This document shows positions 3,106 to 26,243 of a DNA stretch of 32,000 nucleotides, piece by piece. Numbering within the stretch: position 1 is the stretch's first letter; the number at the start of each line of letters is the position of its first letter. A model generated the notes under the pieces. It ran no database searches, was not told the DNA's origin, and was given only the letters and a program-made list of their open reading frames with translations. The translations under genes were made by a program, and so were the position numbers. The DNA is from Alkanindiges illinoisensis DSM 15370 (GTDB taxonomy: Bacteria; Pseudomonadota; Gammaproteobacteria; Pseudomonadales; Moraxellaceae): contig NZ_JHUX01000009.1 in the NCBI RefSeq assembly GCF_000619845.1, positions 1 through 32,000 of the forward strand. Reading direction: 5' to 3'.

Positions 3106-5346
3106 CTACACCAGATTGCTCGGATCAGGAACCGGATTATAGGAAAAGTTTTTGTCATCCGGTGTCCCTGTAATCACCGGCTTGCCAAGCTTATCCTCAT
3201 AGGATTGTTTGCAGGCTGGATAGCCAGAGCAGCCCCAGAACGCATAAGCCTTCCTGCCTTTCTTGCCGGTACGCCGGATCAGGCCACTGCCGCAGGCCTG
3301 ACACTTAAACTGACTGGATACAGCGGCTTTAGGCTTTGGCTGCCCCGGCTTGCCACCCGCATCCGGCAGGGTGGTTTTACAGCTCTCCCGGTCACTACAG
3401 CCCCAAAAGGCCTGTTTGCCGGGTATGGCAATGCGGTTCATGGGCTTGGCACATTTTGGACATGGAACTGAATCCGCCAATTTGACAGAGCCACTTTGCT
3501 TGACACTATCGACTTCCCGGCCAATATAGGTCATCAGGTTTTGCACAAAGCCAACCACATCCTGTTTGGTCTTTAATGCTTTTTGCTGTTCATGCCAGAT
3601 CGCGGTCATATCAGGATACTTGGCCTGATCCGGCAACGCGTCATACAGTTTTTCCCCAATTGGTGTACTGACAATGCTTTTGCCTTGTTCGGCTAAAAAG
3701 CCACGATCAAACAGGGTTTTAATAATACTGTCACGGGTGGCTGGTGTCCCAATGCCCCCATGCTCGCCCTGCTTGTCCTTATCTTTATCAACCAGGGTTT
3801 TACGCAGTCGCTCATCCTTGACGTACTTGGCCACACGGGTTAAATCGCTTAGCAGCGTGGCTATCGTATACAGTGCGGGTGGCTTGGTTTCCTTCTTTTC
3901 TGCAATGGCCTTGATGCACTGGCCTTGATCATGCTGCTTTAAGGTTCGCAGGTCACAGGCCAGGATATGGTCATCCTGGGCCAAATCCTCATTGTCCTGG
4001 TCATTTTTATATAATACTTTCCAGCCCATCCGGGTTGGCACTTCCGCAGAGGCGGTAAACTGGTGCTTACCCACATTGATGAGGATATCGGTACGGTCAT
4101 AGCAGTAATTGGGGAAAAACTGGGCAATATATGCCCTGGCAATCAGCAAATAGATTTTCTGTTCTGCATCAGTCAATTTATTTAAGTCGGCCGTTGCTTC
4201 AGTGGGAATGATTGCATGGTGCGCTGATACCTTGGCACTGTTAAATGCCCGGCTTTTGATACTTGGATCTGATTTACCAATCAGGTTGGCAAAGATTGGG
4301 GCAGTCTGGCCAATGGCTGCCAAAACACCCGGCACATCCCCATGCTGCTCATCACTTAAATACTCGCAGTCTGACCGGTTATAGGTAATCAGCTTATATT
4401 TCTCGCGCAGGTTCTGGGTAATGGTTTTCACCTGGTCTGGCTTCATGCCAAACTTGCGCGATGCATCAGTTTGCAGTTTAAGCAGGTTATAAGGTAAAGG
4501 TGGCGGGGTTTGTTTGGCTTCAGTTTTAACGCTGGCCAAAATCGCCGTATGGCCAGTAGCATCCTGAGCAATTTGTTTGGCCTGAACTTCATCGGTCAGG
4601 CGTTTTTTTTCGTCCACCGTATCGGACTCTTTGACCAGATAGCGACCGTTGAAGTTTAAACCCTGAATATCAAAATCACCGGTTACGCTATAGTAAAAAC
4701 TTTTCTGGTGACTGGCGTGTAAGCGGCAGCGGCGCACCACCAGTCCCAGGATCGGCGTTTGTACCCGGCCCACGCTTAATACGCCCTGATGACCCTGATT
4801 CTGGGCTTTTAGTGTATAGGCACGGGTCAGGTTATAGCCATAGAGCTGGTCGCCCACTGAACGGGCTTCGGCTGCCGCAGACAACGGGGCAAATTCCTGG
4901 TTATCGCGCAGGTTGGCCAGCGCCTTTTGCACCACTTTTAAATTGTTGTCATTAATCAGTACCCGTTTCACCGGCAGGGTGCATTTGGCAAATTCCAGCA
5001 GCTCATCAATCAAGAGCTGGCCTTCATCATCAGGATCACCGGCATGCACCACTTCCCGCGCCTGCTTGAGCAAGGCCATGATTTTTTTAACCTGGTCTTT
5101 TTTATCACTAGCGACTTTTTTCTTCCAGGGTACATGCGAGAACGGTAAATCGGCCATGTTCCACTTTTTATATTTGGCGTCATAATCTTCAGGATCGCAC
5201 AGTTGCAACATGTGGCCAAAACACCAGGTCACGGCATCCTGTCCACACTGAAAATAGCCATCCTGACTTTTACCACCGCCCAGGCCATCACGGATTGCCT
5301 TGGCGAGATCGGGTTTTTCCGCAATGAATAAGCGTCTAATGGTCAT
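3106..5346 (-). CDS. topB: DNA topoisomerase III (type IA) with C-terminal zinc-ribbon repeats
   Basis: Toprim N-terminus (RLFIAEKPDLAKAI; DPDDEGQLL). Active-site region ITYNRSDCEYLS. C-terminal CxxC...FWGCS...C modules (CPKCAKPM..FWGCS; CQACGSGL..FWGCSGYPACK). Plasmid TopB/TraE-like genes commonly accompany P-type T4SS. Confidence 0.9.
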   Translation of the reverse strand: MTIRRLFIAEKPDLAKAIRDGLGGGKSQDGYFQCGQDAVTWCFGHMLQLCDPEDYDAKYKKWNMADLPFSHVPWKKKVASDKKDQVKKIMALLKQAREVVHAGDPDDEGQLLIDELLEFAKCTLPVKRVLINDNNLKVVQKALANLRDNQEFAPLSAAAEARSVGDQLYGYNLTRAYTLKAQNQGHQGVLSVGRVQTPILGLVVRRCRLHASHQKSFYYSVTGDFDIQGLNFNGRYLVKESDTVDEKKRLTDEVQAKQIAQDATGHTAILASVKTEAKQTPPPLPYNLLKLQTDASRKFGMKPDQVKTITQNLREKYKLITYNRSDCEYLSDEQHGDVPGVLAAIGQTAPIFANLIGKSDPSIKSRAFNSAKVSAHHAIIPTEATADLNKLTDAEQKIYLLIARAYIAQFFPNYCYDRTDILINVGKHQFTASAEVPTRMGWKVLYKNDQDNEDLAQDDHILACDLRTLKQHDQGQCIKAIAEKKETKPPALYTIATLLSDLTRVAKYVKDERLRKTLVDKDKDKQGEHGGIGTPATRDSIIKTLFDRGFLAEQGKSIVSTPIGEKLYDALPDQAKYPDMTAIWHEQQKALKTKQDVVGFVQNLMTYIGREVDSVKQSGSVKLADSVPCPKCAKPMNRIAIPGKQAFWGCSDRESCKTTLPDAGGKPGQPKPKAAVSSQFKCQACGSGLIRRTGKKGRKAYAFWGCSGYPACKQSYEDKLGKPVITGTPDDKNFSYNPVPDPSNLV

Positions 5347-11810: not shown

Positions 11811-11824
11811 TTTCGTTAACGAAA
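11811..11824. promoter_or_regulatory. Palindrome TTTCGTTAACGAAA (perfect copy 1), inside the trb operon between the trbM-like gene and trbJ
   Basis: Exact 14-bp palindrome read directly. Confidence 0.6.
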
Positions 11825-17329: not shown

Positions 17330-17791
17330 ATGAATTATACGCCTTATCATGCCATTGGTAGATTATTTGCCATAGAAGAATTAGCCAATCCGATCCTGGC
17401 GGCCAACAAGGACAATCAGACCTTTAGCACCCCGATTGACCAAACCAAGCTACACAATACCATTACGGCAATCCATACCTCGGCCAGCACAATGGTGCAA
17501 AACCGGCTGAAGCAACTGGAAAATGACACCAAAACAAAAATGGATGATCAAAGGCTGGATACTTTTTTAAATCTGGACAGTAATCAGCTTGCCTTACTGC
17601 AACAGGCCTATATTAATGAACGTACTGCCATTAAGCGTTGTAATGTCTTTAAGACGATTCGTCTACGGAAAAATTTGAGTATTGATGAGGCTGCTGAAGG
17701 CTTGAAACTCAATCGTCGTAACCTTCAGGCATGGGAAGCACATAAAAAAAACTGCCCAATTGATGCCATTAAACGACTTGAGCAGTTATAA
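17330..17791 (+). CDS. Hypothetical protein (153 aa) with a C-terminal HTH-like segment, divergent from the XRE gene
   Basis: The C-terminal IRLRKNLSIDEAAEGLKLNRRNLQAWEAHKK resembles an XRE-type HTH. The N-terminal two thirds are unrecognised. Confidence 0.55.
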   Translation: MNYTPYHAIGRLFAIEELANPILAANKDNQTFSTPIDQTKLHNTITAIHTSASTMVQNRLKQLENDTKTKMDDQRLDTFLNLDSNQLALLQQAYINERTAIKRCNVFKTIRLRKNLSIDEAAEGLKLNRRNLQAWEAHKKNCPIDAIKRLEQL

Positions 17792-17803: not shown

Positions 17804-18082
17804 TTAAAACAGGTCAGCATGTGATCCGCACCGGGCTAAAATCAATTCCTGATTGTCCCAATCCACGTCCCAGATCAGTAAGAAATCCGGTTGCACATGG
17901 CATTCCATGTGGGGCTTCCAGTTCCCAACTAAGGGATGTGGCTTATATTCATCCGGGACAGTTCCTGTTTTCACTAAATGCTCATCAATAAGCTGTAGTA
18001 GTAAATCTGTATCCTTTTTAGGATCATTTAATGCCCGTTTTAAATCTTTTTTAAACTGCTTTTTAATCCTGATTATCAGCAT
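17804..18082 (-). CDS. yafQ: Type II toxin, YafQ/RelE family mRNA interferase
   Basis: KKQFKKDLKRA...YKPHPLVGNWKPHMECHVQPDFLLIWDVD...LARCGSHADLF matches the YafQ signature (H-P-L-x-G-x-W-x-x-x-x-E-C-H-x-x-P-D-x-L-L-I...G-[ST]-H-x-[DA]-L-F). It overlaps the upstream antitoxin gene by 20 nt. Confidence 0.9.
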   Translation of the reverse strand: MLIIRIKKQFKKDLKRALNDPKKDTDLLLQLIDEHLVKTGTVPDEYKPHPLVGNWKPHMECHVQPDFLLIWDVDWDNQELILARCGSHADLF

Positions 18083-18332
18083 TATCTAACTCAACAAATA
18101 GTGCTTTTGCTGTTGGGTAGGTCTGCGGCTCAACAGGTGCTTTCATGGCAGCGAGTGTCACAGCGTTCGGAACTCTAAGTTCAAGCGGAAACTCCTGACG
18201 GACTATCACCTGATGCAAAAAAATCCTGATTGCGTCAGACATGCTTAAACCTATTGAGCCTAACACCACTTCGGCCTTCTGTTTGATATCACCGTCAACC
18301 CTTGCCCTAACTACATCGGCTTTAGTGTTCAT
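18063..18332 (-). CDS. dinJ: Type II antitoxin, DinJ/RelB family
   Basis: N-terminal RHH region VRARVDGDIKQKAEVVLGSIGLSMSDAIRIFLHQVI, typical of RelB/DinJ. It sits upstream of the toxin and overlaps it. Confidence 0.9.
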   Translation of the reverse strand: MNTKADVVRARVDGDIKQKAEVVLGSIGLSMSDAIRIFLHQVIVRQEFPLELRVPNAVTLAAMKAPVEPQTYPTAKALFVELDNADNQD

Positions 18333-18359
18333 GGTATTTACTCCTGTCTTGGTAAGTTT

Positions 18360-18383
18360 ATTGTAGCACTTTTGAGCTACAAT
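18360..18383. promoter_or_regulatory. Inverted repeat ATTGTAGC-(8 nt)-GCTACAAT, 28 bp upstream of dinJ; candidate TA autoregulation operator
   Basis: Perfect 8-bp arms read directly. The position is typical of RHH antitoxin operators. Confidence 0.5.
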
Positions 18384-18410
18384 GCAAATTCAGCTATTAG
18401 AAGATAAAAA

Positions 18411-18424
18411 TTTCGTTAACGAAA
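18411..18424. promoter_or_regulatory. Palindrome TTTCGTTAACGAAA (perfect copy 2) in the dinJ / parA divergent control region
   Basis: Exact 14-bp palindrome. It lies 52 bp upstream of the -35 of the putative parA promoter. Confidence 0.6.
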
Positions 18425-18462
18425 ATTTCATCTTTGGCGTCATAACAAAAAGTATTGAATTA

Positions 18463-18505
18463 ATGTAAAGTGTTATTGACAACACACTATATTTTTTAAG
18501 ATACT
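18463..18505 (+). promoter_or_regulatory. Putative parA-operon promoter: conserved box ATGTAAAGTGTTATTG overlapping the -35 TTGACA (18476-18481), with -10 GATACT (18500-18505, 18-bp spacer)
   Basis: Consensus -35 but a moderate -10. The 16-bp box recurs at 23630-23645 in front of a second promoter. Confidence 0.5.
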
Positions 18506-18562
18506 GAAATTGTTCACTAGAACTTTTTATTGATGTGTGGCTAACGCTACGAAGGAGTTAAG

Positions 18563-18646
18563 ATGAGTAACCCAGTCATAGGCGATGTGTTTTATTCCCT
18601 ATTTGGTGCTACATTGGGCGCAATTTTTATAAATTTTGGCGGTTAA
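18563..18646 (+). CDS. Short hydrophobic ORF (27 aa, MSNPVIGDVFYSLFGATLGAIFINFGG) upstream of parA
   Basis: Strong SD GAAGGAG (18551-18557) 5 nt before the ATG. The stop is 16 nt before the parA ATG. The same SD cassette drives a real gene at 23740. Translation is not proven. Confidence 0.35.
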   Translation: MSNPVIGDVFYSLFGATLGAIFINFGG

Positions 18647-18662
18647 GGGGCAAGGACATTTT

Positions 18663-19403
18663 ATGAAAATAATTACGATTGCAAATCAAAAAGGCGGCGT
18701 CGGAAAAAGTGCGCTGAGCCTGCATATTGCTTTTTACCTGCATGAGCTGGGTAAAAAAGTGGTGTTCATTGATCTTGACCCACAAGGTAACAGCTCAAGC
18801 GTACTGGGTAAGACTGACTTTCAGGCGGTGGCTTCGGCCAGCAGTTTATTTCAGGACAACTTTAGCCTGGATATGCCCCTACCCCATGCTGTTTTATTGA
18901 AAGGTGATGCCAGCCTGGTCAATAACCTGGATATAAAGTTGTTTGTGCAGAACATGAATCAACTCATCAAGTCTATTGATGATGACACCATTTGCATTGT
19001 CGATACCGCCCCAACCGCTAGTGCCTTACAGATTGCCCCGCTTATTGTCAGTGATAGCGTGGTATCCCCGATTGAGCTTGAAAGTTTTTCCATAGCCGGG
19101 ATTGCCAGTATCCTCAACACCCTAAACAACATTAAGGAACAATATAACCCTCGGCTGAATTTTTTAGGGATTGTTCCTAACCGGGTTAAAGGGGTCAGTC
19201 ATCGCCAGCTCACCCTGTTGGAACAGCTAAAGACGTCCTACTCACAATACCTGCTCGACCCTGAATTTAAGATTAATGAGCGTCAGGCCATACCAGAGGC
19301 CTTGGATCAGGGCATCCCGGTATGGCGGCTTGGCAAGACCTCTGCCCGTGATGTGGGCAAGGAAATGAAAGCTGTCGTTTCTAAAATATATCAATCAATT
19401 TAG
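18663..19403 (+). CDS. parA: Partition ATPase ParA (IncC-like, deviant Walker A)
   Basis: MKIITIANQKGGVGKSALSLHIA is a KGGxGKS deviant Walker A, and VVFIDLDPQGN follows. The preferred start is the ATG at 18663, with AAGGA 6 nt upstream. The track TTG at 18636 is less likely. Confidence 0.9.
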   Translation: MKIITIANQKGGVGKSALSLHIAFYLHELGKKVVFIDLDPQGNSSSVLGKTDFQAVASASSLFQDNFSLDMPLPHAVLLKGDASLVNNLDIKLFVQNMNQLIKSIDDDTICIVDTAPTASALQIAPLIVSDSVVSPIELESFSIAGIASILNTLNNIKEQYNPRLNFLGIVPNRVKGVSHRQLTLLEQLKTSYSQYLLDPEFKINERQAIPEALDQGIPVWRLGKTSARDVGKEMKAVVSKIYQSI

Positions 19404-19410
19404 GACAATA

Positions 19411-20427
19411 ATGATGAATTTGGATGCACTCAATAACTTAAATATCGGTTCCCTGGTTGGCAAGCCAAGCCGTACCCAGAATACCAAGGATCAACTGCAT
19501 ATTGACCTTGCCTTGATTGAAGAAGACCCGTTAAACGTCCGTCTGGTGTTCGATGAAGACAAATTACAGGCACTGGCGGATACCATTCGGGAAAATGGGG
19601 TATTGACCCCTATTTCAATTCGCCCCAATCCTGACAAGTCCGGGCATTTTATTATTAATAACGGTGCTCGACGTTTTAGGGCATCTACCCTGCTTGGCTT
19701 AAAATCCATTCCGGCGTTTATTGATGAGCAGCATGATGAAATCAATCAAATGATTGATAATCTGGAGCGTGAGGATTTAACACCGCTTGAGATTGCTCAG
19801 AAGATTTATAAGCTGGCCAATCATGAAGATAAGGCCAAGCGCCTTAAAAAAGAAGACATTGCAAAACGGCTTGGTGCAAAACCGGCATGGGTATCCAAGC
19901 ATTTAAAACTGCTTGAAATGCCTGAAAAACTCAAGTTCCTGTATGACATGAAACGCTGCAACGACCTTGAAGCCTTATATGCCATTAGCTCGGCCTATAA
20001 GAAATATCCTCATCAAATTGACAAATGGCTGGATTCCTTTAAGGACAGTTCTGACATTATTACCCAGCAGGCCGCCAATGCGTTTTTAAACAAGTTAAAG
20101 GAAAAGGATAAGCCCAAAGCGGCTAGCCCTATCGCTGAGCAGGATGAAGCTTCTGTAGACCGTGCTAGTCGGCCTGATAATACTGAGTATGAAGCTGCTG
20201 AAGCCGGTGAAAATTTTGATAGTAATGACAATGCAGGGACTAAAGACCGGTCAATTGGCCAGCAGTCTTCCAATGAGTCATTCAAGTCAGGCCATGATCT
20301 CAAGTTTATCAGTATTTCTTTGGTCGGCAGTGATGAGCAGCATCAACAGATTACCCAGCAGCTCCAAGAATTTTTAAAACAAATCGAGCAGCAGTATCCA
20401 ACCGCCCAGCTTGAGCTGCAAAGTTGA
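19411..20427 (+). CDS. parB: ParB/KorB-family partition and DNA-binding protein
   Basis: N-terminal ParB box (ENGVLTPISIRPN...FIINNGARRFRASTLLG), a central HTH region (LTPLEIAQKI...KEDIAKRLGAKPAWVSKHLKLL) and an acidic, low-complexity C-terminal half. It lies directly downstream of parA. Confidence 0.85.
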   Translation: MMNLDALNNLNIGSLVGKPSRTQNTKDQLHIDLALIEEDPLNVRLVFDEDKLQALADTIRENGVLTPISIRPNPDKSGHFIINNGARRFRASTLLGLKSIPAFIDEQHDEINQMIDNLEREDLTPLEIAQKIYKLANHEDKAKRLKKEDIAKRLGAKPAWVSKHLKLLEMPEKLKFLYDMKRCNDLEALYAISSAYKKYPHQIDKWLDSFKDSSDIITQQAANAFLNKLKEKDKPKAASPIAEQDEASVDRASRPDNTEYEAAEAGENFDSNDNAGTKDRSIGQQSSNESFKSGHDLKFISISLVGSDEQHQQITQQLQEFLKQIEQQYPTAQLELQS

Positions 20428-20436
20428 TCAGACATA

Positions 20437-20462
20437 CAGAACTTTCGTTAACGAAAGTTCTG
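20437..20462. promoter_or_regulatory. 26-bp perfect palindrome CAGAACTTTCGTTAACGAAAGTTCTG (contains perfect copy 3) between parB and the korA-like gene
   Basis: Read directly. The core is at 20443-20456. Confidence 0.6.
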
Positions 20463-20482
20463 CCCATGATGGAATCATTATC

Positions 20483-20821
20483 ATGATGAAAAAATCAGGC
20501 TACCAGGGCATTCTGACACAAGAACAATATGATGCACTACTGCCCACTTTGGCAAACTTTTCAGAAGAACGTAAACAGGCCTGCTACCTGGTCATGGTCA
20601 AAGGCATGCCAGCCACCGAAGTTGCCAATCAGTTCAGCAAAACCCGGCAGTGGCTAAATGATGCGCTAATCAAGGTTTATGACAAATATGTTCAGGTCAA
20701 TTACCCGAGTGATTGGCAAACCATTACCGTCCGGGTTCCCCCACATCTTGCCGTTATCATCAGAGGCATGGAACAAAAGGCACTGGACTTGCTAAAGCAA
20801 CAGATTAGAAAGTTAAAATAA
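20483..20821 (+). CDS. korA: KorA/TrfB-family transcriptional repressor (about 112 aa)
   Basis: The layout parallels RK2 KorA as I recall it. LTQEQYDAL.. matches LTESQFQEA.. at the N-terminus. A central HTH follows (ATEVANQFSKTRQWLNDALIKV). The C-terminal ..WQTITVRVPPHLAVIIRGMEQKA matches ..YARVTAVLPEHQAYIVRKWEADA. The start is placed at ATG 20483 because the track start at 20411 would read through the palindrome. Confidence 0.6.
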   Translation: MMKKSGYQGILTQEQYDALLPTLANFSEERKQACYLVMVKGMPATEVANQFSKTRQWLNDALIKVYDKYVQVNYPSDWQTITVRVPPHLAVIIRGMEQKALDLLKQQIRKLK

Positions 20822-20998
20822 TCGGTAGCCATTATTAATATTTTCTATTAAACCAGTTAAATCTAATCAACATCGTTTATATAAATTTACTATTCAGACA
20901 TACTGAGTAAATCATTCAGTACATGACTATAAATATATCGCCATATTGACCACGCTATAAACGGCTTTCCAATACCCTACTCCCCAGAGGTAAAGTGA

Positions 20999-21262
20999 AT
21001 GAAAGCGTACTTCCTTGGTTGTACAGTGGCCTTACTTGCATCAACGCAGGCGATGGCAGCAACCGTTGCCGCAGAAGCCTTCAGTCGTGGTAATTGCAGG
21101 GCTTATATTCCTGGTTACGGCTATGGCTGGTATAACGAATCCATATCTTATGATGCGTTATCCGGGACACACTATAATTTGTATGCCAAGACTTCCCAGA
21201 CCAACCGTAGAGGGTTCCAGCTCGATCCAATCAAAGCACCAACCCTGCTGGTTACCGGGTAA
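20999..21262 (+). CDS. Secreted hypothetical protein (87 aa as read); possibly the 5' part of a frameshifted gene of about 135 codons ending at 21405
   Basis: Signal peptide MKAYFLGCTVALLASTQAMA-A with SD GAGG upstream. A second frame is open from 21211 to 21405 and fills the otherwise empty gap before the next gene. Confidence 0.5.
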   Translation: MKAYFLGCTVALLASTQAMAATVAAEAFSRGNCRAYIPGYGYGWYNESISYDALSGTHYNLYAKTSQTNRRGFQLDPIKAPTLLVTG

Positions 21263-21417
21263 GAGCTGGCTATGTTGATCCAATTAGTGATCCTACCTTT
21301 TGGTATATCACAGGCGCGCACCGGGAAACCCTCGATTCTGGCCGTATCGTGTCTTTTAACACATCAGCCACAGATTGCAATTTACACCCTGGCCAATTCC
21401 TCTAATGCAGACAGCGC

Positions 21418-22266
21418 ATGAATATTAAAAAAGTATTGTTAATTGCCCTACTGGCCATTGCCCTGGTAGGGCTTGTTTTCATCTTTATCAAATCGCAAGA
21501 GGTGAAGCAAACCACTGTGATTGGTAATGGCATAGGCCCAGATCAGCAGCTACAGGGTAGTGCTAAACCCCTATCCTCTTCATCCATGAATAACCCGACA
21601 ACGGTACAGCAAAACCCAGCTTCATTATTGGACATTAATTCTAGTCCCGTAACCGATGATCCATCCATGCCCGATTTAAAAGGCCGCCGTGACAAAAACC
21701 CGGATGGGGTGATTTATACCACCTTAAATAACACCACCTTGGATAAAAACGAAAAACAGTTTCTTGAAAAGCGTTTAAACAACCTACAGCGTTATGGCAG
21801 TTTTAGTGGCGGCAAAAAAACCGATGAGTTTAGCCATCTGGATAAAAAACACGCCATGTTAAAACAAGATAAGCCTTTAAGCTTTAAACCTACTGAGATT
21901 GCCACCCTTATCCCTGATTTAACGCTTACTGGCAAATGGTATTCCGGCGGTGCCAGTGCAGGCGGCTATTCATCATTGTACCGCCTGTATGAAAGCCCAC
22001 AGAGTAATCAGAAGTTTGAAATTACCGAAATGTACTTAGACCCTAAGAGTAATGCAACCGTAGAAGTACTCAAGGAAAGCCTGAACTACAACATTAATAA
22101 TGTTCCGATGACCTTGGAAACCATTAAGGATGATAACGGCAACGAAATATACAACGTGCATTATGTGGTGAACCAGCGCTATTACTCGCTATCTAGCCAG
22201 AATATGTCGAAGACTGAACTTGATAAAATTCTACAAACCTTGGCTAGGCCTTCTTATACACAGTGA
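21418..22266 (+). CDS. Membrane-anchored or exported hypothetical protein (282 aa)
   Basis: N-terminal TM/signal anchor (VLLIALLAIALVGLVFIFI), then a Ser/Pro/Asn-rich linker and a globular C-terminal domain. No family was recognised. Confidence 0.6.
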   Translation: MNIKKVLLIALLAIALVGLVFIFIKSQEVKQTTVIGNGIGPDQQLQGSAKPLSSSSMNNPTTVQQNPASLLDINSSPVTDDPSMPDLKGRRDKNPDGVIYTTLNNTTLDKNEKQFLEKRLNNLQRYGSFSGGKKTDEFSHLDKKHAMLKQDKPLSFKPTEIATLIPDLTLTGKWYSGGASAGGYSSLYRLYESPQSNQKFEITEMYLDPKSNATVEVLKESLNYNINNVPMTLETIKDDNGNEIYNVHYVVNQRYYSLSSQNMSKTELDKILQTLARPSYTQ

Positions 22267-22277
22267 GCTGAAAAATG

Positions 22278-22309
22278 GTTATAAACTTTCGTTAAAGAAA
22301 ATTTATAAC
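22278..22309. promoter_or_regulatory. 32-bp near-palindrome GTTATAAACTTTCGTTAAAGAAAATTTATAAC (variant copy, core 13/14) between convergent genes
   Basis: Read directly. The core TTTCGTTAAAGAAA (22287-22300) has one mismatch. The outer arms GTTATAAA/TTTATAAC are perfect. Confidence 0.5.
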
Positions 22310-22346
22310 ATGCGTGGAATTCCCTAACCACAGCCTAATAGACTTT

Positions 22347-23306
22347 TTAAGACAAAATTTCCAAGTATGGATTTTTGTCTATAATGGCCGCATGTGATTT
22401 CTTTCGTAGTAGTTCTAACAAATCACCTTGACGTTGTAATAGCATGACAAATTCTTGCAAAGAACATAGAAACAAAGTTTTCTGGGTTAGTGCATTTCTA
22501 CACTCAGAAATAACTGATGCTGCATAACCATTTGTTGCAATAAAAATTCCATGAGCATTTGCACGCATGAATAATCGGCTTAAGTGAGGCGAAAACTCAC
22601 CTATTCCTACTGGTATATTAAGCCACTTCATTTCTACAAGATGGATTTGTCCATTTAATTCAATTACACCGTCTATTTGTTCAACAATGACTGAACTATC
22701 AGGGTCTCTACGGCGGAAATCTTCCTGAACATAAATTCCATAAGCACGAAATAAATCATTTAAAACCTTTTCCAATAATTTTCCTCGCTCCTGTGGCTTA
22801 TCATCCATTTTAAATAACGCCAAAAGACACTGGTTAACATGTTCAATCTTTGCGCGTTTTTCTGCAGCTGCATTACGTTCTGACTGTTGTTTAGCTATTC
22901 GAGAATTCCGTTCAGCATCTCGTTCCTGTTTCATTCGAGTAAAAGCATCCTTTTTATTTACGGCTTCCCTAATACTGGCAACCAATCCTTTAGCCTTATA
23001 TTGGTCATTTGGCCAGCAAGTTTCAAAGCTTTCAAAATCCACTACACGCCTTAAAATTTCGCGACGGGCACGAAGTCCGTTATCGCCCCGTTGATTTACC
23101 TTTGTCAAAACATTTCGAACAATATCAAATTTATTAATTGCTTCAGGTGTTGCATTTACTAAGTGTTGTACTTCATGGATATCTTCCGGAGCTACACCAG
23201 CACCCTGAAAAAATAGCACAACATCTCGTTTGCTACGACAAAGCAGAGGAATGGTATCAACAAGTAAACTCAATACCTCTGGTGGATAATGATATGCATC
23301 TACCAT
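22347..23306 (-). CDS. Restriction-endonuclease-like (Mrr-cat, PD-(D/E)xK) domain protein with an unknown N-terminal domain and a coiled-coil linker
   Basis: The C-terminal region ERGKLLEKVLNDLFRAYGI...EQIDGVIELNGQIHLVEMKWLN...GIFIATNGY fits the Mrr-type nuclease core (D ... E-x-K). The preferred start is the ATG at 23306, preceded by GGGGAG. The track start at 23318 is a GTG lying inside that SD. Confidence 0.7.
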   Translation of the reverse strand: MVDAYHYPPEVLSLLVDTIPLLCRSKRDVVLFFQGAGVAPEDIHEVQHLVNATPEAINKFDIVRNVLTKVNQRGDNGLRARREILRRVVDFESFETCWPNDQYKAKGLVASIREAVNKKDAFTRMKQERDAERNSRIAKQQSERNAAAEKRAKIEHVNQCLLALFKMDDKPQERGKLLEKVLNDLFRAYGIYVQEDFRRRDPDSSVIVEQIDGVIELNGQIHLVEMKWLNIPVGIGEFSPHLSRLFMRANAHGIFIATNGYAASVISECRNALTQKTLFLCSLQEFVMLLQRQGDLLELLRKKSHAAIIDKNPYLEILS

Positions 23307-23565
23307 GTTACTCCCCACATTTCATAAATTTCAGTATATTAGAACAATATTATATCTATTGCTTAACGTATATATAGGGTCAGTTACTGAACTATTTCTA
23401 GTGATCTAACGAGCTTTAGGTTTAGCTAGAATTCAAAATTGATAAAAATATAAAAAAACACAAGTTTTTTATGTTCAAGAAGGATCAGTTCTCATTACCA
23501 CCCCAATCATAGGATATGGCAATGAACAACTTGGCTTTGACTTCCAGCTTTAAGCTATTTAGAAG

Positions 23566-23581
23566 CTTTCGTTAACGAAAG
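23566..23581. promoter_or_regulatory. 16-bp perfect palindrome CTTTCGTTAACGAAAG (perfect copy 4) in the divergent region between the nuclease gene and orf117
   Basis: Read directly. It lies 62 bp upstream of the -35 of the orf117 promoter. Confidence 0.6.
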
Positions 23582-23629
23582 TTTCCAACACTATCATGCC
23601 CTGAGCACTTCATTTAAAATTGATATATT

Positions 23630-23671
23630 ATGTAAAGTGTTATTGTAAATTTCATGCTTATTTAATATAAT
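23630..23671 (+). promoter_or_regulatory. Promoter of orf117: conserved box ATGTAAAGTGTTATTG overlapping -35 TTGTAA (23643-23648), 17-bp spacer, -10 TATAAT (23666-23671)
   Basis: Perfect -10 at optimal spacing. The upstream box is identical to that at 18463-18478. Confidence 0.65.
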
Positions 23672-23739
23672 ACAATCATCGGCAGCAACAACCCGATACT
23701 TTCATTTTCATGTGTGGCCAAGGCCGCGAAGGAGTAAAA

Positions 23740-24093
23740 ATGTCTACTGCAACTGAATTAAAATTACCACTTAAATCAAACCTGACCCCGGAAGAACAAC
23801 AGCTCAATACTCAACTTTTGGCATTTAATCTCATCAATGTTGATTTTGTAGACTGGAATGATGGTTACACGCGAGAATATTGGTATGAAGATTTTGATGT
23901 TTATATCATCAAGTTATTGCCTAACGAAACAATCAACGCGCTATTAAATCGACACTCACTGGATTCAATTCCCGGTTACAGGCATGGCGATCAGGCCATC
24001 ATAGATGCTCAAGAAATTTTTGAAAGAACCCGCAATTTTTATACCGGTACTGCAAAACTGCTTATGCTGATTAGACGCTATGCTGGGGAATAA
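23740..24093 (+). CDS. Hypothetical protein (117 aa)
   Basis: ATG preceded by GAAGGAG at 5-nt spacing and followed by a strong intrinsic terminator. No family was recognised. The in-frame upstream ATG at 23710 lies inside the conserved 5'-UTR hairpin and is unlikely to be used. Confidence 0.65.
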   Translation: MSTATELKLPLKSNLTPEEQQLNTQLLAFNLINVDFVDWNDGYTREYWYEDFDVYIIKLLPNETINALLNRHSLDSIPGYRHGDQAIIDAQEIFERTRNFYTGTAKLLMLIRRYAGE

Positions 24094-24105
24094 AATTTAA
24101 CCGTG

Positions 24106-24140
24106 AAAAGCAGCAGCTCATGCTGCTTTTTTTATTTTTG
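24106..24140 (+). terminator. Rho-independent terminator after orf117
   Basis: AAAAGCAGCAGCTCATGCTGCTTTTTTTATTTTTG: a GC-containing stem (AAAAGCAGCA/TGCTGCTTTT) followed by a long T-tract. Confidence 0.85.
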
Positions 24141-24351
24141 AAATACAAAATCAACAATATGATAAAAGCTCACCATTTGCGTTTTAAGCGATTATAAATG
24201 TTATAAGCTAGGGTAACTTGTTTTTTTAGTTAAATGCGCTGGAATCGCTTCCTATCGCATTTTAAAGGTATATGATTAATCGATCTTGGATCAAGTTTTT
24301 AGAAAAATGTAGTTTTAAAAATATTTGTTGACAGGTTTGGAAATATCGTGG

Positions 24352-24477
24352 TAATGATTATCATACTATATAATTAATATTAAATATATATATATTTAGA
24401 GCTTTATAAAAACTTTAAAAGCTTTAAAGCTTTAGGAAAGATTTTTTCAATTATTTATCAATTGCTTATGAAAATTA
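24352..24477. other. AT-rich region of oriV (candidate DNA-unwinding element) with an (AT)n run and four RCTTTA repeats (24401, 24412, 24421, 24429)
   Basis: Very AT-rich sequence directly abutting the iteron array. The repeats GCTTTATAAAAACTTTAAAAGCTTTAAAGCTTTAGG were read directly. Confidence 0.6.
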
Positions 24478-25005
24478 AAAAGGACGTTTTGTCCAGATAG
24501 AAAGGACGCTTTGTCCTTTTAAAAAGGACGTTTTGTCTGATTAAAAGGGACATTTTGTCCATTTAAAAAGGACGTTTTGTCTTAAAAGGGACGTTTTGTC
24601 CAAAAATAACCTAAATTTCAGCTTTTAAAAGGACGTTTTGTCCAAATAATGATTAATAAATGACCATGGAAAGGACGTTTTGTCCGGCCAGCATGTAGGT
24701 TTGATTAAAATATCACCATAGAAAGGACGTTTTGTCCAAAACCAGCTTAATTTTTAATCTTAAAAAGGACGTTTTGTCTTAAAAAGGACGTTTTGTCCTA
24801 AGCTGGACTAAATCTTAGCTATTCATGTCCTTTTTAGATGTAAAGTCAGATTGACTAAATGTTGATTCTCATTTTGAGTATTTGTTATCCAGTCTTTAGA
24901 TGAAATCTTTCAACTTAGGGTCATGTTTTAAGTCGCCTTGTTCTACTTTAGAATCTAAAAAAGGACGCTTTGTCCAAGATAAATCTAAAAAAGGACGTTT
25001 TGTCC
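24478..25005 (+). repeat. oriV iteron array: 13 direct repeats of about AAAGGACGTTTTGTCC
   Basis: Cores start at 24481, 24503, 24525, 24547, 24569 (exact 22-bp phasing), then 24588, 24630, 24672, 24724, 24766, 24785, 24962 and 24992. All are in the same orientation with minor variants (GGGAC, CGCTTT, GTCT). The array is immediately upstream of a Rep_3-type gene. Confidence 0.9.
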
Positions 25006-25091
25006 CGAATTTTACAATTGCCCCTAATATTATAAACTTATGATTTAAAGCATATAATTTATCTAACATTCTATCTCGTATAATTTTTTTC

Positions 25092-25126
25092 AAAAAAGGA
25101 CTTTATAATTCAATTATTCCTTTTTT
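25092..25126. promoter_or_regulatory. Imperfect palindrome AAAAAAGGA...TCCTTTTTT enclosing TATAAT (25104-25109); candidate rep promoter/operator built from the left half of the iteron
   Basis: The 9-bp outer arms are perfect and the inner ATAATT-C-AATTAT is also palindromic. AAAGGAC equals the iteron left half. It lies 44 bp upstream of the rep ATG. Confidence 0.5.
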
Positions 25127-25169
25127 AGGTTTACAATAGTGTTAGTCAAAGAATGAATGGATAAAAATA

Positions 25170-26219
25170 ATGGCGGAAAACAGTAACAGCCAGCTCGCCT
25201 TGTATGTGCAACCGGACGATTTACTGGTTACCAGCAATTTACTCGTAGATACCAATATTGAAGTCACCATTAACGAGATCAAGATCATTTATCTGGCAAT
25301 GGTGGCTGCCAGAAACATGAAAAATTTTGACAGTAATGTCTATGTCAAAGTGCATTCAAAAAACTTTGCCGAGTTAACTGGCCAGAAAGAAGAATCTGCA
25401 AAAAAGGTTATGTTCAGGGCGATTGAAACCCTTAAAGGCAGATCGGTTGAGTTTGAGGAAAAAAACCTAAACAATCCCAAACGTGATTCAATCACTGTGG
25501 TGCCGGTATTAAGTGGCATTCGCTATTATAAGGATGAACATGCTTTAGAGTTGCGCTTTACCCCGGAAGTCATACCGCATTTTACCAAGCTGGTTAACGG
25601 CAATTTTACAGTTAACAAGATTGGTTATCTGATGAAACTCGATAGCCTGTATGCAATGGAGTTTTACCGGTTTTTAAGAAAGGAAAACTTTAAGGATAAA
25701 GTGCTGATCCTGACACTGGAGCAAATCCGTATTTTCTTTAATGTAGTGGGTAAATACGACGATATTAAGGATTTAAAAGCCCGTGTGATTGACATTGCTG
25801 TTGACCAGATCAATGCCCACACAGACATTATGGTCAATTATGAAAATGTCAGAACGGGACGAAAAGTTACCGGCCTGAAATTTGATTTTGCTGAAAAACC
25901 AAAACAGCTCACGCTTGATAAGCCTGCTGGTACTGGAAAAGTGGCTGGAACCAGTCCGAATCAGGAATTGCAGGATTTTATCAACACAGGCATCAACCAA
26001 GCCAATTATAAAATCATCAAGCCGACACTGACGGATTTTGATAACCGTAAAAATCAGGTTGAAGGCTTAAAGTATCTGTATGAAATCGCAAAACGTGCGA
26101 AAGTTTCACCGGATTTATTGATTTACCGGTTATCTTTGGAAGTGACTAAAGATAAAAACGTGATTTTTAATTACAACACGCTGGTTGGCTATGCTTTTAA
26201 TCTTGCCAATGAGCAATAG
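25170..26219 (+). CDS. rep: Replication initiator, Rep_3 (RepB/pi-like, iteron-binding) family
   Basis: Iterons lie upstream. Rep_3-like motifs are present: LDSLYAMEFYRFLRK, LTLEQIRIFF, DIKDLKARVIDIAVDQINAHTDIMVNYENVRTGRKVTGLKFDF. Confidence 0.9.
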   Translation: MAENSNSQLALYVQPDDLLVTSNLLVDTNIEVTINEIKIIYLAMVAARNMKNFDSNVYVKVHSKNFAELTGQKEESAKKVMFRAIETLKGRSVEFEEKNLNNPKRDSITVVPVLSGIRYYKDEHALELRFTPEVIPHFTKLVNGNFTVNKIGYLMKLDSLYAMEFYRFLRKENFKDKVLILTLEQIRIFFNVVGKYDDIKDLKARVIDIAVDQINAHTDIMVNYENVRTGRKVTGLKFDFAEKPKQLTLDKPAGTGKVAGTSPNQELQDFINTGINQANYKIIKPTLTDFDNRKNQVEGLKYLYEIAKRAKVSPDLLIYRLSLEVTKDKNVIFNYNTLVGYAFNLANEQ

Positions 26220-26243
26220 ACTTTCGTTAACGAAAGTCTATTG
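26214..26243. promoter_or_regulatory. 30-bp perfect palindrome CAATAGACTTTCGTTAACGAAAGTCTATTG (contains perfect copy 5) overlapping the rep stop codon, between convergent rep and traM
   Basis: Read directly. The core is at 26222-26235. Confidence 0.6.

Follow-up and report, generated by a model that had tools for sequence, protein, structure and literature searches.

The KorB/KorA regulon of the IncP-1 plasmid RK2, in which TrbA also takes part, acts through 12 OB operators and through OA operators at core promoters (PMC11790492, PMC13584720, PMC13768133). In the RK2 model, KorB loads at a distal OB, slides along the DNA until KorA, sitting on the core promoter, locks it; KorA itself forms dimers that bind palindromes over the -10 (PMC11790492). 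In the IncN plasmids pKM101/R46, conserved upstream (CUP) elements are bound by ArdK (Delver & Belogurov 1997, cited in PMC6289460). Here we describe two promoter regions in a 32,000-nucleotide stretch of Alkanindiges illinoisensis DSM 15370 (the window), located at positions 18411-18565 in front of a parA-korB-korA operon (region 1) and at 23567-23742 in front of an orphan gene, orf117 (region 2). The window is the first 32 kb of the 107-kb contig NZ_JHUX01000009.1 (hereafter C8), 43.5% GC, in an assembly of 11 contigs and 3.3 Mb. With moderate confidence, we read the two regions as promoters in the plasmid's own KorB/KorA-type network, built from three separable layers, namely a palindrome, a box fused to the -35 hexamer, and an mRNA hairpin next to the Shine-Dalgarno sequence (SD). 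The elements of the two regions are as follows.

18411-18424: palindrome TTTCGTTAACGAAA, a putative OB-like operator of KorB; the inferred parA-operon transcript start lies ~94 bp downstream
18463-18478 and 23630-23645, plus strand: 16-mer ATGTAAAGTGTTATTG, identical in both regions, ending in the TTG of the -35
18463-18481, plus strand: box (ATGTAAAGTGTTATTG) fused to the -35 hexamer TTGACA (18476-18481), predicted promoter-proximal operator
18500-18505, plus strand: -10 hexamer GATACT after an 18-nt spacer, a consensus match only (transcript start inferred)
18533-18558: conserved block ATGTGTGGCTAACGCTACGAAGGAGT
18537-18550, plus strand: 5-bp hairpin GUGGC-UAAC-GCUAC in the predicted 5' untranslated region, abutting the SD
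18551-18557, plus strand: SD GAAGGAG, 5 nt before the ATG at 18563
23567-23580: second copy of the palindrome, ~105 bp upstream of the inferred orf117 transcript start
23630-23648, plus strand: second box, fused to the -35 hexamer TTGTAA (23643-23648)
23666-23671, plus strand: -10 hexamer TATAAT after a 17-nt spacer, from a consensus scan
23710-23735: conserved block ATGTGTGGCCAAGGCCGCGAAGGAGT
23714-23727, plus strand: 5-bp hairpin GUGGC-CAAG-GCCGC, abutting the SD
23728-23734, plus strand: SD GAAGGAG, 5 nt before the ATG at 23740

In the arrangement that we propose, the palindrome, which has eight further copies on the plasmid besides those ~95-105 bp upstream of the two transcript starts, would be the binding or loading site of KorB, a ParB-type clamp dependent on cytidine triphosphate (CTP). 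The box, generalised as TGTAAAG-N4-ATTG, would be a second operator, close to the promoter, to which a regulator encoded by the plasmid binds; the KorA/TrfB homologue is the most likely candidate. At the core promoter, this regulator would occlude RNA polymerase and, by analogy with RK2, could capture KorB sliding from the distal palindrome. The outcome would be cooperative autorepression of parA-korB-korA, orf117 and the oriV/rep promoter. Binding and regulation by KorB and KorA at these sites are what we infer from homology, distribution and covariation. The hairpin travels with the ribosome-binding site rather than with the promoter, and would act in the mRNA, most likely to set translation initiation or leader stability.

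The initial annotation had reported the modules of this arrangement, and all of them are present in both regions, in the same order, at those coordinates and far above chance, with GAAGGAG exactly 5 nt before each ATG. Within the window, the palindrome has 7 matches at ≤2 mismatches (0.18 expected) and the leader block has 2 (0.00 expected). Across the genome, TTTCGTTAACGAAA occurs in 9 exact copies and 1 near copy (13/14) on C8 and in none on the other ten contigs (3.19 Mb). The exact 16-mer and the leader block are confined to C8 in the whole 3.3-Mb genome, and TGTAAAG-N4-ATTG is found 3 times on C8 and 0 times in the remaining 3.19 Mb. The core promoters TTGACA-18-GATACT (18476-18505) and TTGTAA-17-TATAAT (23643-23671) are among the three best consensus-scan matches in 18300-25200. 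The leader block takes the form ATGTGTGGC-N4-GCYRCGAAGGAGT and contains the 5-bp/4-nt hairpin; the block is real, although the dotted pattern first given for it suggested a loop of 2 nt and the actual arrangement is GGC-N4-GC with a 4-nt loop. The exchanges between the two stems, T-A to T.G and G.T to G-C, had been described correctly.

Related plasmids extend this comparison. A megablast search of 18000-24200 against PLSDB returned no match, and a distant blastn search with the cassette returned one 39-nt match, to NZ_CP113937, a plasmid of Acinetobacter sp. ESL0695 whose KorB is 43% identical to that of C8. Scans with the KorB alignment gave only 4 loci from genome contigs and 4 from metagenome contigs. 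A close relative used below is a metagenome sequence, L033, with a KorB 94% identical to that of C8; another lineage is formed by Acinetobacter plasmids with a KorB ~53% identical. The label 'pNDM-BJ01-like' was considered for these Acinetobacter plasmids and rejected; they belong to a small PLSDB group, rep_cluster_327, of 8 records. A search of the whole plasmid and of its relatives for the box and the hairpin, a check that the initial annotation had proposed, found them conserved in the related plasmids.

Pairwise alignment of the two regions gives a mosaic of identical blocks and unrelated spacers, with length differences of 11-12 nt, which argues for selection on the modules and not for a recent duplication. 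A chance resemblance, or a functionless neutral remnant of such a duplication, would suit the fact that the full arrangement occurs only twice in this plasmid. We regard this as very improbable, given the sharp edges of the conserved blocks, the persistence of the modules at 43-53% KorB identity, and the close relatives, in which both C8 cassettes are nearly unchanged from palindrome to ATG while the flanks upstream of the palindrome are unalignable.

A stronger version of the relationship between the modules had been put forward in the initial annotation, which saw one portable cassette, palindrome through SD, that moves as a unit and couples transcriptional with post-transcriptional control. 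Portability stands in part, as whole promoter-leader cassettes have been copied before unrelated genes. The module order is the same at both loci, L033 carries five hairpin-SD blocks, one more full cassette precedes an additional unrelated gene there, and the leaders of orf117 and of the L033 gene orf168 share extra sequence; repeated promoter cassettes also have a precedent in the IncN CUP elements (PMC6289460). The idea of a single indivisible module did not survive the inspection of individual sites. The 10 palindrome sites are mostly without the other modules, and eight have neither box nor hairpin. The box stands without the hairpin at C8 24839 (rep/oriV) and at the korA promoter of ESL0695, and the hairpin-SD block stands without the box before rep of ESL0695, behind an iteron promoter, and at L033 17116, an intercistronic junction 18 nt after a palindrome. 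Together with inter-module spacers of unrelated sequence and differing length, these sites make movement as one intact unit an unlikely explanation. The L033 cargo genes orf168, orf88 and orf279 each have their own ATGTGTGGC-N4-GCTACGAAGGA block. At L033 17518, a box-like promoter and then a terminator-like hairpin precede the hairpin-SD; this terminator-like hairpin (AGGTATGTTAG...CTAACATACCT, then T7), placed within 17440-17545 between box promoter and hairpin-SD, could be a leader attenuator.

The palindrome is best read as a KorB operator, because the operon behind region 1 encodes ParA, a KorB-family ParB protein and a KorA/TrfB protein and because the palindrome is confined to the plasmid. 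The operon consists of four reading frames.

18563-18646, plus strand: 27-codon hydrophobic leader open reading frame (ORF) behind the hairpin and SD, with its stop 16 nt before parA
18663-19403, plus strand: parA/incC-type ATPase gene (Pfam AAA_31, CbiA, ParA)
19411-20427, plus strand: korB, with ParB_N and KorB domains and the CTP-box motif GARRFRA (Pfam, RK2 KorB match)
20486-20821, plus strand: korA/trfB-type repressor gene, the last gene of the operon (PF16509; PDB 7bbq, 2w7n)

The KorB protein matches the Pfam families KorB (3.1e-16) and ParB_N (8.3e-16) and aligns to RK2 KorB (8qa8) with E = 7e-44, IINNGARRFRA standing opposite IINHGARRYRG. The KorA protein matches PF16509 at 4.1e-10, PDB 7bbq at 1.1e-6 and PDB 2w7n at 4.8e-4. 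Beyond the two regions, five further copies of the palindrome lie in the window.

11811-11824: palindrome copy just upstream of trbJ, its position conserved in the Acinetobacter relatives
20443-20456: palindrome copy at the korB/korA junction
22287-22300: palindrome copy, 13/14 match, between convergent genes
26222-26235: palindrome copy directly 3' of the rep stop codon
29161-29174: palindrome copy inside the traI relaxase gene

Each of the rep_cluster_327 plasmids IHIT7853-OXA-23, pYH16056-2 and pMsp65 holds 6-7 copies of the identical 14-mer at equivalent places: before the trbJ homologue, before the control operon and immediately behind parB. NZ_CP113937 uses TTTCTGATCCGAAA in the same positions, and the helix-turn-helix segment of its KorB reads NTWVSKHL instead of PAWVSKHL. 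Helix and palindrome covary between lineages, which is the one line of support for direct binding or loading of KorB at the palindrome, with repression. The OB sequence of RK2, TTTAGCSGCTAAA, is absent as an operator here and TTTCGTTAACGAAA takes its place; judged by these sequences, the KorB system is a relative of the RK2 type with its own specificity and not an RK2-type OB system. In a literature search, the palindrome string was found in no paper, and nothing relevant emerged on KorB/KorA in Acinetobacter or on KorB in pNDM-BJ01. The TTTCTGATCCGAAA sites of NZ_CP113937 (L005), at 4332, 4965, 16803, 26834 and 47371, are imperfect palindromes, and those preceding box promoters share one orientation, 11-17 bp upstream of the box. 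On C8, the copies at gene ends (20437-20462, 22278-22309, 26214-26243) sit in longer self-complementary flanks, e.g. GAAC-TTTCGTTAACGAAA-GTTC, and may double as bidirectional terminators.

The second layer, the box, is probably a promoter-proximal operator. It has a third copy in the window.

24839-24853, plus strand: third box (TGTAAAGTCAGATTG + ACT), between the oriV iteron clusters and upstream of rep, without a hairpin

NZ_CP113937 carries 6 exact copies of TGTAAAG-N4-ATTG, each continued by ACA to give TTGACA and, in the flanks shown, followed 16-18 nt downstream by TATAAT or a -10-like variant of it; the genes behind these copies are korA, parA, trbF and three unrelated ORFs. The rep_cluster_327 plasmids have a variant box, TGTAATACTYTATTG, in the same place, sometimes as a 9-bp direct repeat with 13-bp spacing. 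In all three lineages, a box precedes every promoter that drives korA. The recognition helix of KorA reads (T/S)RQWL in the two lineages with TGTAAAG-N4-ATTG and QRQVV in the lineage with TGTAATACTYTATTG; helix and box covary. The distance from palindrome to box ranges from 11 to 68 bp, which fits a sliding clamp better than fixed contacts. The third box is located between the iteron clusters of oriV, and this suggests that the same regulator may control rep/oriV transcription, as KorA/KorB do at trfA of RK2.

The narrower claim that KorA is the protein that binds the box stands at slightly less than an even chance in our judgement. The covariation of its recognition helix covers three lineages only. 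In addition, the box is non-palindromic and overlies the -35, so it falls outside the definition of OA as a 12-bp palindrome overlapping the -10; as RK2 KorA binds -10 palindromes, the homologue here might bind something else. Both points weigh against KorA as the box-binding protein, and the box may work like OA without being OA by definition. Instead of a repressor's operator, it could also be an activator site or a UP-like element from which these promoters gain their strength or their dependence on an activator of the plasmid or the host. Its location at about -52 to -33 is that of a class II activator or UP-proximal contact, its non-palindromic form would fit, and in rep_cluster_327 it is a direct repeat of TGTAATACT with 13-bp spacing. 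We nevertheless find this improbable. Most box promoters are consensus or near-consensus (TTGACA-17-TATAAT in ESL0695, 10/12 matches in C8) and should therefore need no activation; the absence of the box from 3.19 Mb of host chromosome argues that it is not a host promoter feature; and the central control operons of related systems are autorepressed (PMC11790492). A promoter-proximal operator thus remains our reading of the box.

The third layer, the hairpin, most likely is a separate, family-wide element at the mRNA level that behaves like a conserved RNA structure. The initial annotation had argued for a conserved structure from covariation between two sequences, which is too thin alone; the argument holds once relatives are added. 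A regular-expression scan of the relatives found copies of the hairpin with its SD, and in a scan without any pairing requirement every GC-N4-GC site followed by an SD was fully paired at true gene starts. At such sites in the host chromosome, 5.8% are fully paired, which equals chance and shows no enrichment. Circularity was avoided by fetching four further lineages by KorB alone and reading the 45 nt upstream of three orthologous genes; this unfiltered reading revealed the hairpin upstream of orf151, parA and the ORF after parB in every lineage fetched. Altogether, the hairpin is aligned at 29 gene starts from three plasmid lineages. The genes behind it are partition genes in each of the three lineages; in one relative the replication gene is among them, and in others cargo genes are.

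Pairing is complete in the alignment of 29 sequences (145 of 145 cells). Covariation is seen at pairs 1 and 3 (GC 12 / AU 10 / GU 7 and AU 16 / GU 7 / GC 6, respectively), and 0 of 500 shuffles reach the observed covariation score or the count of double changes. When the 3' arm is slid out of register, pairing drops to 11-39%. The whole leaders fold no more stably than shuffled ones (z -1.9 to +0.7), and only the 5-6-bp hairpin appears consistently in the centroid.

A stem of this kind could also be a DNA site, a palindromic operator of 14 bp (RTRGC-N4-GCYAY) at which a dimeric repressor of the plasmid, e.g. the KorA/TrfB homologue, would form a roadblock shortly after the promoter; the box would then be mere promoter sequence or the site of another factor. 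Proteins of the KorA type are palindrome-binding dimers (PMC11790492; PDB 2w7n), and in the C8 lineage the half-sites are conserved around a variable 4-bp centre (TAAC, AATC, CAAG, CTTG). The stem is uniform per plasmid and different between lineages, as operators are, a TGGC core is common to C8 and ESL0695, which share the RQWL helix of KorA, and one promoter-less copy lies 18 bp from a KorB palindrome. The position and the strand of the variation speak for RNA. From the helix end to the SD-like purine run there are 0-6 nt everywhere, whereas the distance from helix to -10 varies from ~10 to ~85 nt. The non-Watson-Crick cells number 16; on the sense strand, every one of them is G.U and A.C never occurs. 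The copy GUGGC-GAAA-GCUGU holds three wobble pairs and is symmetric as DNA at 2/5 positions only. Orthologous sites pass through the series A-U, G.U, G-C, and among the rep_cluster_327 copies listed the loops are GNRA on the sense strand (GAAA, GAGA, GCAA, GUAA). Finally, the korA promoter of ESL0695 has a box and no such palindrome. The G.U-only wobbles, the GUGGC-GAAA-GCUGU copy, the orthologous series, the GNRA loops and the SD-fixed position favour RNA, and we give the DNA operator little credence.

Several observations nonetheless count against the hairpin as an RNA element. The inner G-C and C-G pairs are invariant in 29/29 copies, and the loops are not GNRA in C8 itself (UAAC, CAAG), nor in ESL0695 (AAUA, AUUA). 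Stems are near-uniform within one plasmid, which would also suit a sequence-specific DNA-binding dimer, or a factor acting on DNA or RNA. Many copies are paralogues or orthologues, so that the cell counts overstate the number of independent events. The simplest mechanism, in which the hairpin insulates the SD, is likewise unsupported, because modelled accessibility did not change. In partition-function calculations on 20 leaders, SD accessibility was 0.47 for native, 0.47 for stem-disrupted and 0.48 for compensatory sequences (Wilcoxon p = 0.57), which gives no support to the proposal that the hairpin keeps the SD unpaired.

Two other mechanisms were discarded. An intrinsic terminator or attenuator is at odds with the GAAGGAG that follows the hairpin in place of a U tract, and the hairpin does not figure in the terminator-scan list; an SD-sequestering riboswitch or RNA thermometer is at odds with an SD outside the helix and with the unchanged modelled accessibility. 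As candidate mechanisms, the helix might stack beside the SD/anti-SD duplex, hinder RNase E from attacking the AU-rich leader in a 5'-end-dependent way, or provide a binding site for a dedicated plasmid-encoded RNA-binding factor. We postulate only tentatively, and with considerable doubt, that the hairpin is the operator of a plasmid-wide post-transcriptional regulon, an RNA-level second arm of the Kor-type global circuit; an RNA-binding factor coevolving with the stem, or docking of the ribosome, would then control translation of partition, replication and cargo genes in parallel to KorA/KorB.

Rfam covariance models applied to 18000-25300 gave four chance-level matches (E 0.1-0.96), none of them at the cassettes. 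The initial annotation had not recognised the cassette as a described element; the hairpin matches no Rfam family, and the transcriptional half has the architecture of the IncP-1 KorB/KorA regulon (PMC11790492). Where KorB is 30-40% identical (pMOV1, pHH1107 and family genomes), a generic scan detected no hairpins next to an SD. With a covariance model of the hairpin (R1), neither the 107-kb contig nor more distant KorB plasmids yielded additional copies. Model R1 gave one marginal match, at L020 34903-34935 on the minus strand (20 bits, E = 0.04; ATAGC-AACTT-GCTAT); it combines the family stem with a 5-nt loop, no SD adjoins it, and a recombinase gene follows after ~45 nt. The korA genes of rep_cluster_327 plasmids are not preceded by the 5-bp SD hairpin; they have a longer hairpin 12-15 nt 5' of the SD (L020 15800-15850; L025 ~1595-1640; equivalents in L041, L042 and L019). 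Its sequence is wholly different between lineages and yet pairs (TGGGCCAG-TTAA-GCTGGCCCA versus GGGCTGGC-TATTT-GTCAGCCC), and it may be an intercistronic terminator or stabiliser.

The surrounding genes identify the window, from sequence, as an IncP-1-like conjugative plasmid backbone; besides the central control operon parA-korB-korA, it has Trb mating-pair genes, TraJ/TraI/TraL, an oriV with iterons and a Rep_3 initiator. Synteny with annotated relatives places the Trb block on the minus strand, and genes for RelB and a YafQ-type toxin adjoin region 1. Directly upstream of the KorB-type palindrome, at 18333-18400, lies the divergent promoter of this relB/yafQ-type toxin-antitoxin pair with its own palindrome (TTGTAGC...GCTACAA); in relatives, the sequence left of the KorB-type palindrome is replaced, yet the motif TTGTAGC...GCTA is kept. 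The product of the 27-codon ORF, MSNPVIGDVFYSLFGATLGAIFINFGG, is hydrophobic, and the ORF is retained where KorB is 91-94% identical, with a few changes, most of them non-synonymous (D8 to Y/N, F to I, G to D). Unlike in C8, it is parA itself that directly follows the hairpin and SD in the Acinetobacter relatives. Downstream of the control operon, the following features were assigned.

23740-24093, plus strand: orf117, lineage-restricted orphan gene driven by region 2 (homologue searches)
24105-24131: strong terminator after orf117 (terminator scan)
25170-26219: Rep_3 initiator gene (Pfam)

orf117 matches no Pfam or NCBIfam family, its sole homologues are 85-94% identical, and it has no similarity to the genes behind equivalent cassettes in relatives. 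oriV comprises at least 11 iterons (AAAGGACGTTTTGTCC) in two clusters at 24470-25020, upstream of rep, and rep is followed by genes for TraL, TraJ and the MobP relaxase TraI. The interval between korA and orf117 is a variable cargo region. In L033 (11921-18924), its genes encode an MmeI-like type IIL enzyme and a second N6 methyltransferase, next to small ORFs, and C8 has other genes there.

The transcriptional layer is a variant within the known KorB/KorA kind, and the hairpin with its SD is the part worth pursuing. The former would extend the RK2 paradigm to a Moraxellaceae plasmid family with a different operator, a different gene order and a non-palindromic -35 element, and this family offers a natural test of how general a clamp that slides and is then locked at the promoter may be. 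The latter is a candidate new cis-regulatory leader motif, supported by its orthologous positions in three lineages, compensatory changes and strand-specific wobbles. If the hairpin sets translation or mRNA stability, plasmid maintenance would be affected, including that of the blaOXA-23-carrying relatives, and the motif would provide a compact, portable expression-control part for Acinetobacter-type hosts. A true RNA arm would then be present in a plasmid family that includes Acinetobacter OXA-23 carbapenemase plasmids.

By description, the C8 regions share with the IncN CUP elements a promoter-containing sequence repeated before unrelated genes; there too, the replication gene is included and a plasmid-encoded repressor is in control. 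CUP is described as one ArdK-bound DNA element, whereas the modules here are separable and one apparently acts as RNA. The likeness to RK2 goes further. Both plasmids carry one operon with ParA/IncC, a KorB-family ParB-CTPase and a KORA-domain repressor, autoregulated in RK2 and predicted to be so here. In both, a short palindrome recurs plasmid-wide, within genes as well as at promoters and gene ends; a distal palindrome is accompanied by another conserved element on the core promoter; and the replication-initiator region is targeted too. They differ in the operator (TTTCGTTAACGAAA here, TTTAGCSGCTAAA in RK2), in gene order (parA-korB-korA versus korA-incC-korB), in the core-promoter element (non-palindromic over the -35 versus over the -10) and in the replicon (Rep_3 with iterons versus TrfA). 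No description of an SD-adjacent hairpin surfaced in the literature on the palindrome and the Kor system, the RK2 papers included, although no search was aimed at the hairpin itself.

At the RNA level, the translational operators of T4 gene 43 and MS2 replicase are sequence-conserved stem-loops of ~5 bp beside or overlapping the ribosome-binding site. These are single-gene autoregulatory sites whose conserved loops contact the protein, whereas the hairpin here is multi-copy across the plasmid and its loops vary in two lineages. 5' stem-loops of the ompA type stabilise mRNA, and hairpins can also be obstacles to RNase E scanning; the classical stabilisers sit at the very 5' end. The hairpin described here resembles them as a small stable structure in an AU-rich leader upstream of the ribosome-binding site, and differs in that the SD fixes the place of its helix, for which +10 to +85 is predicted.

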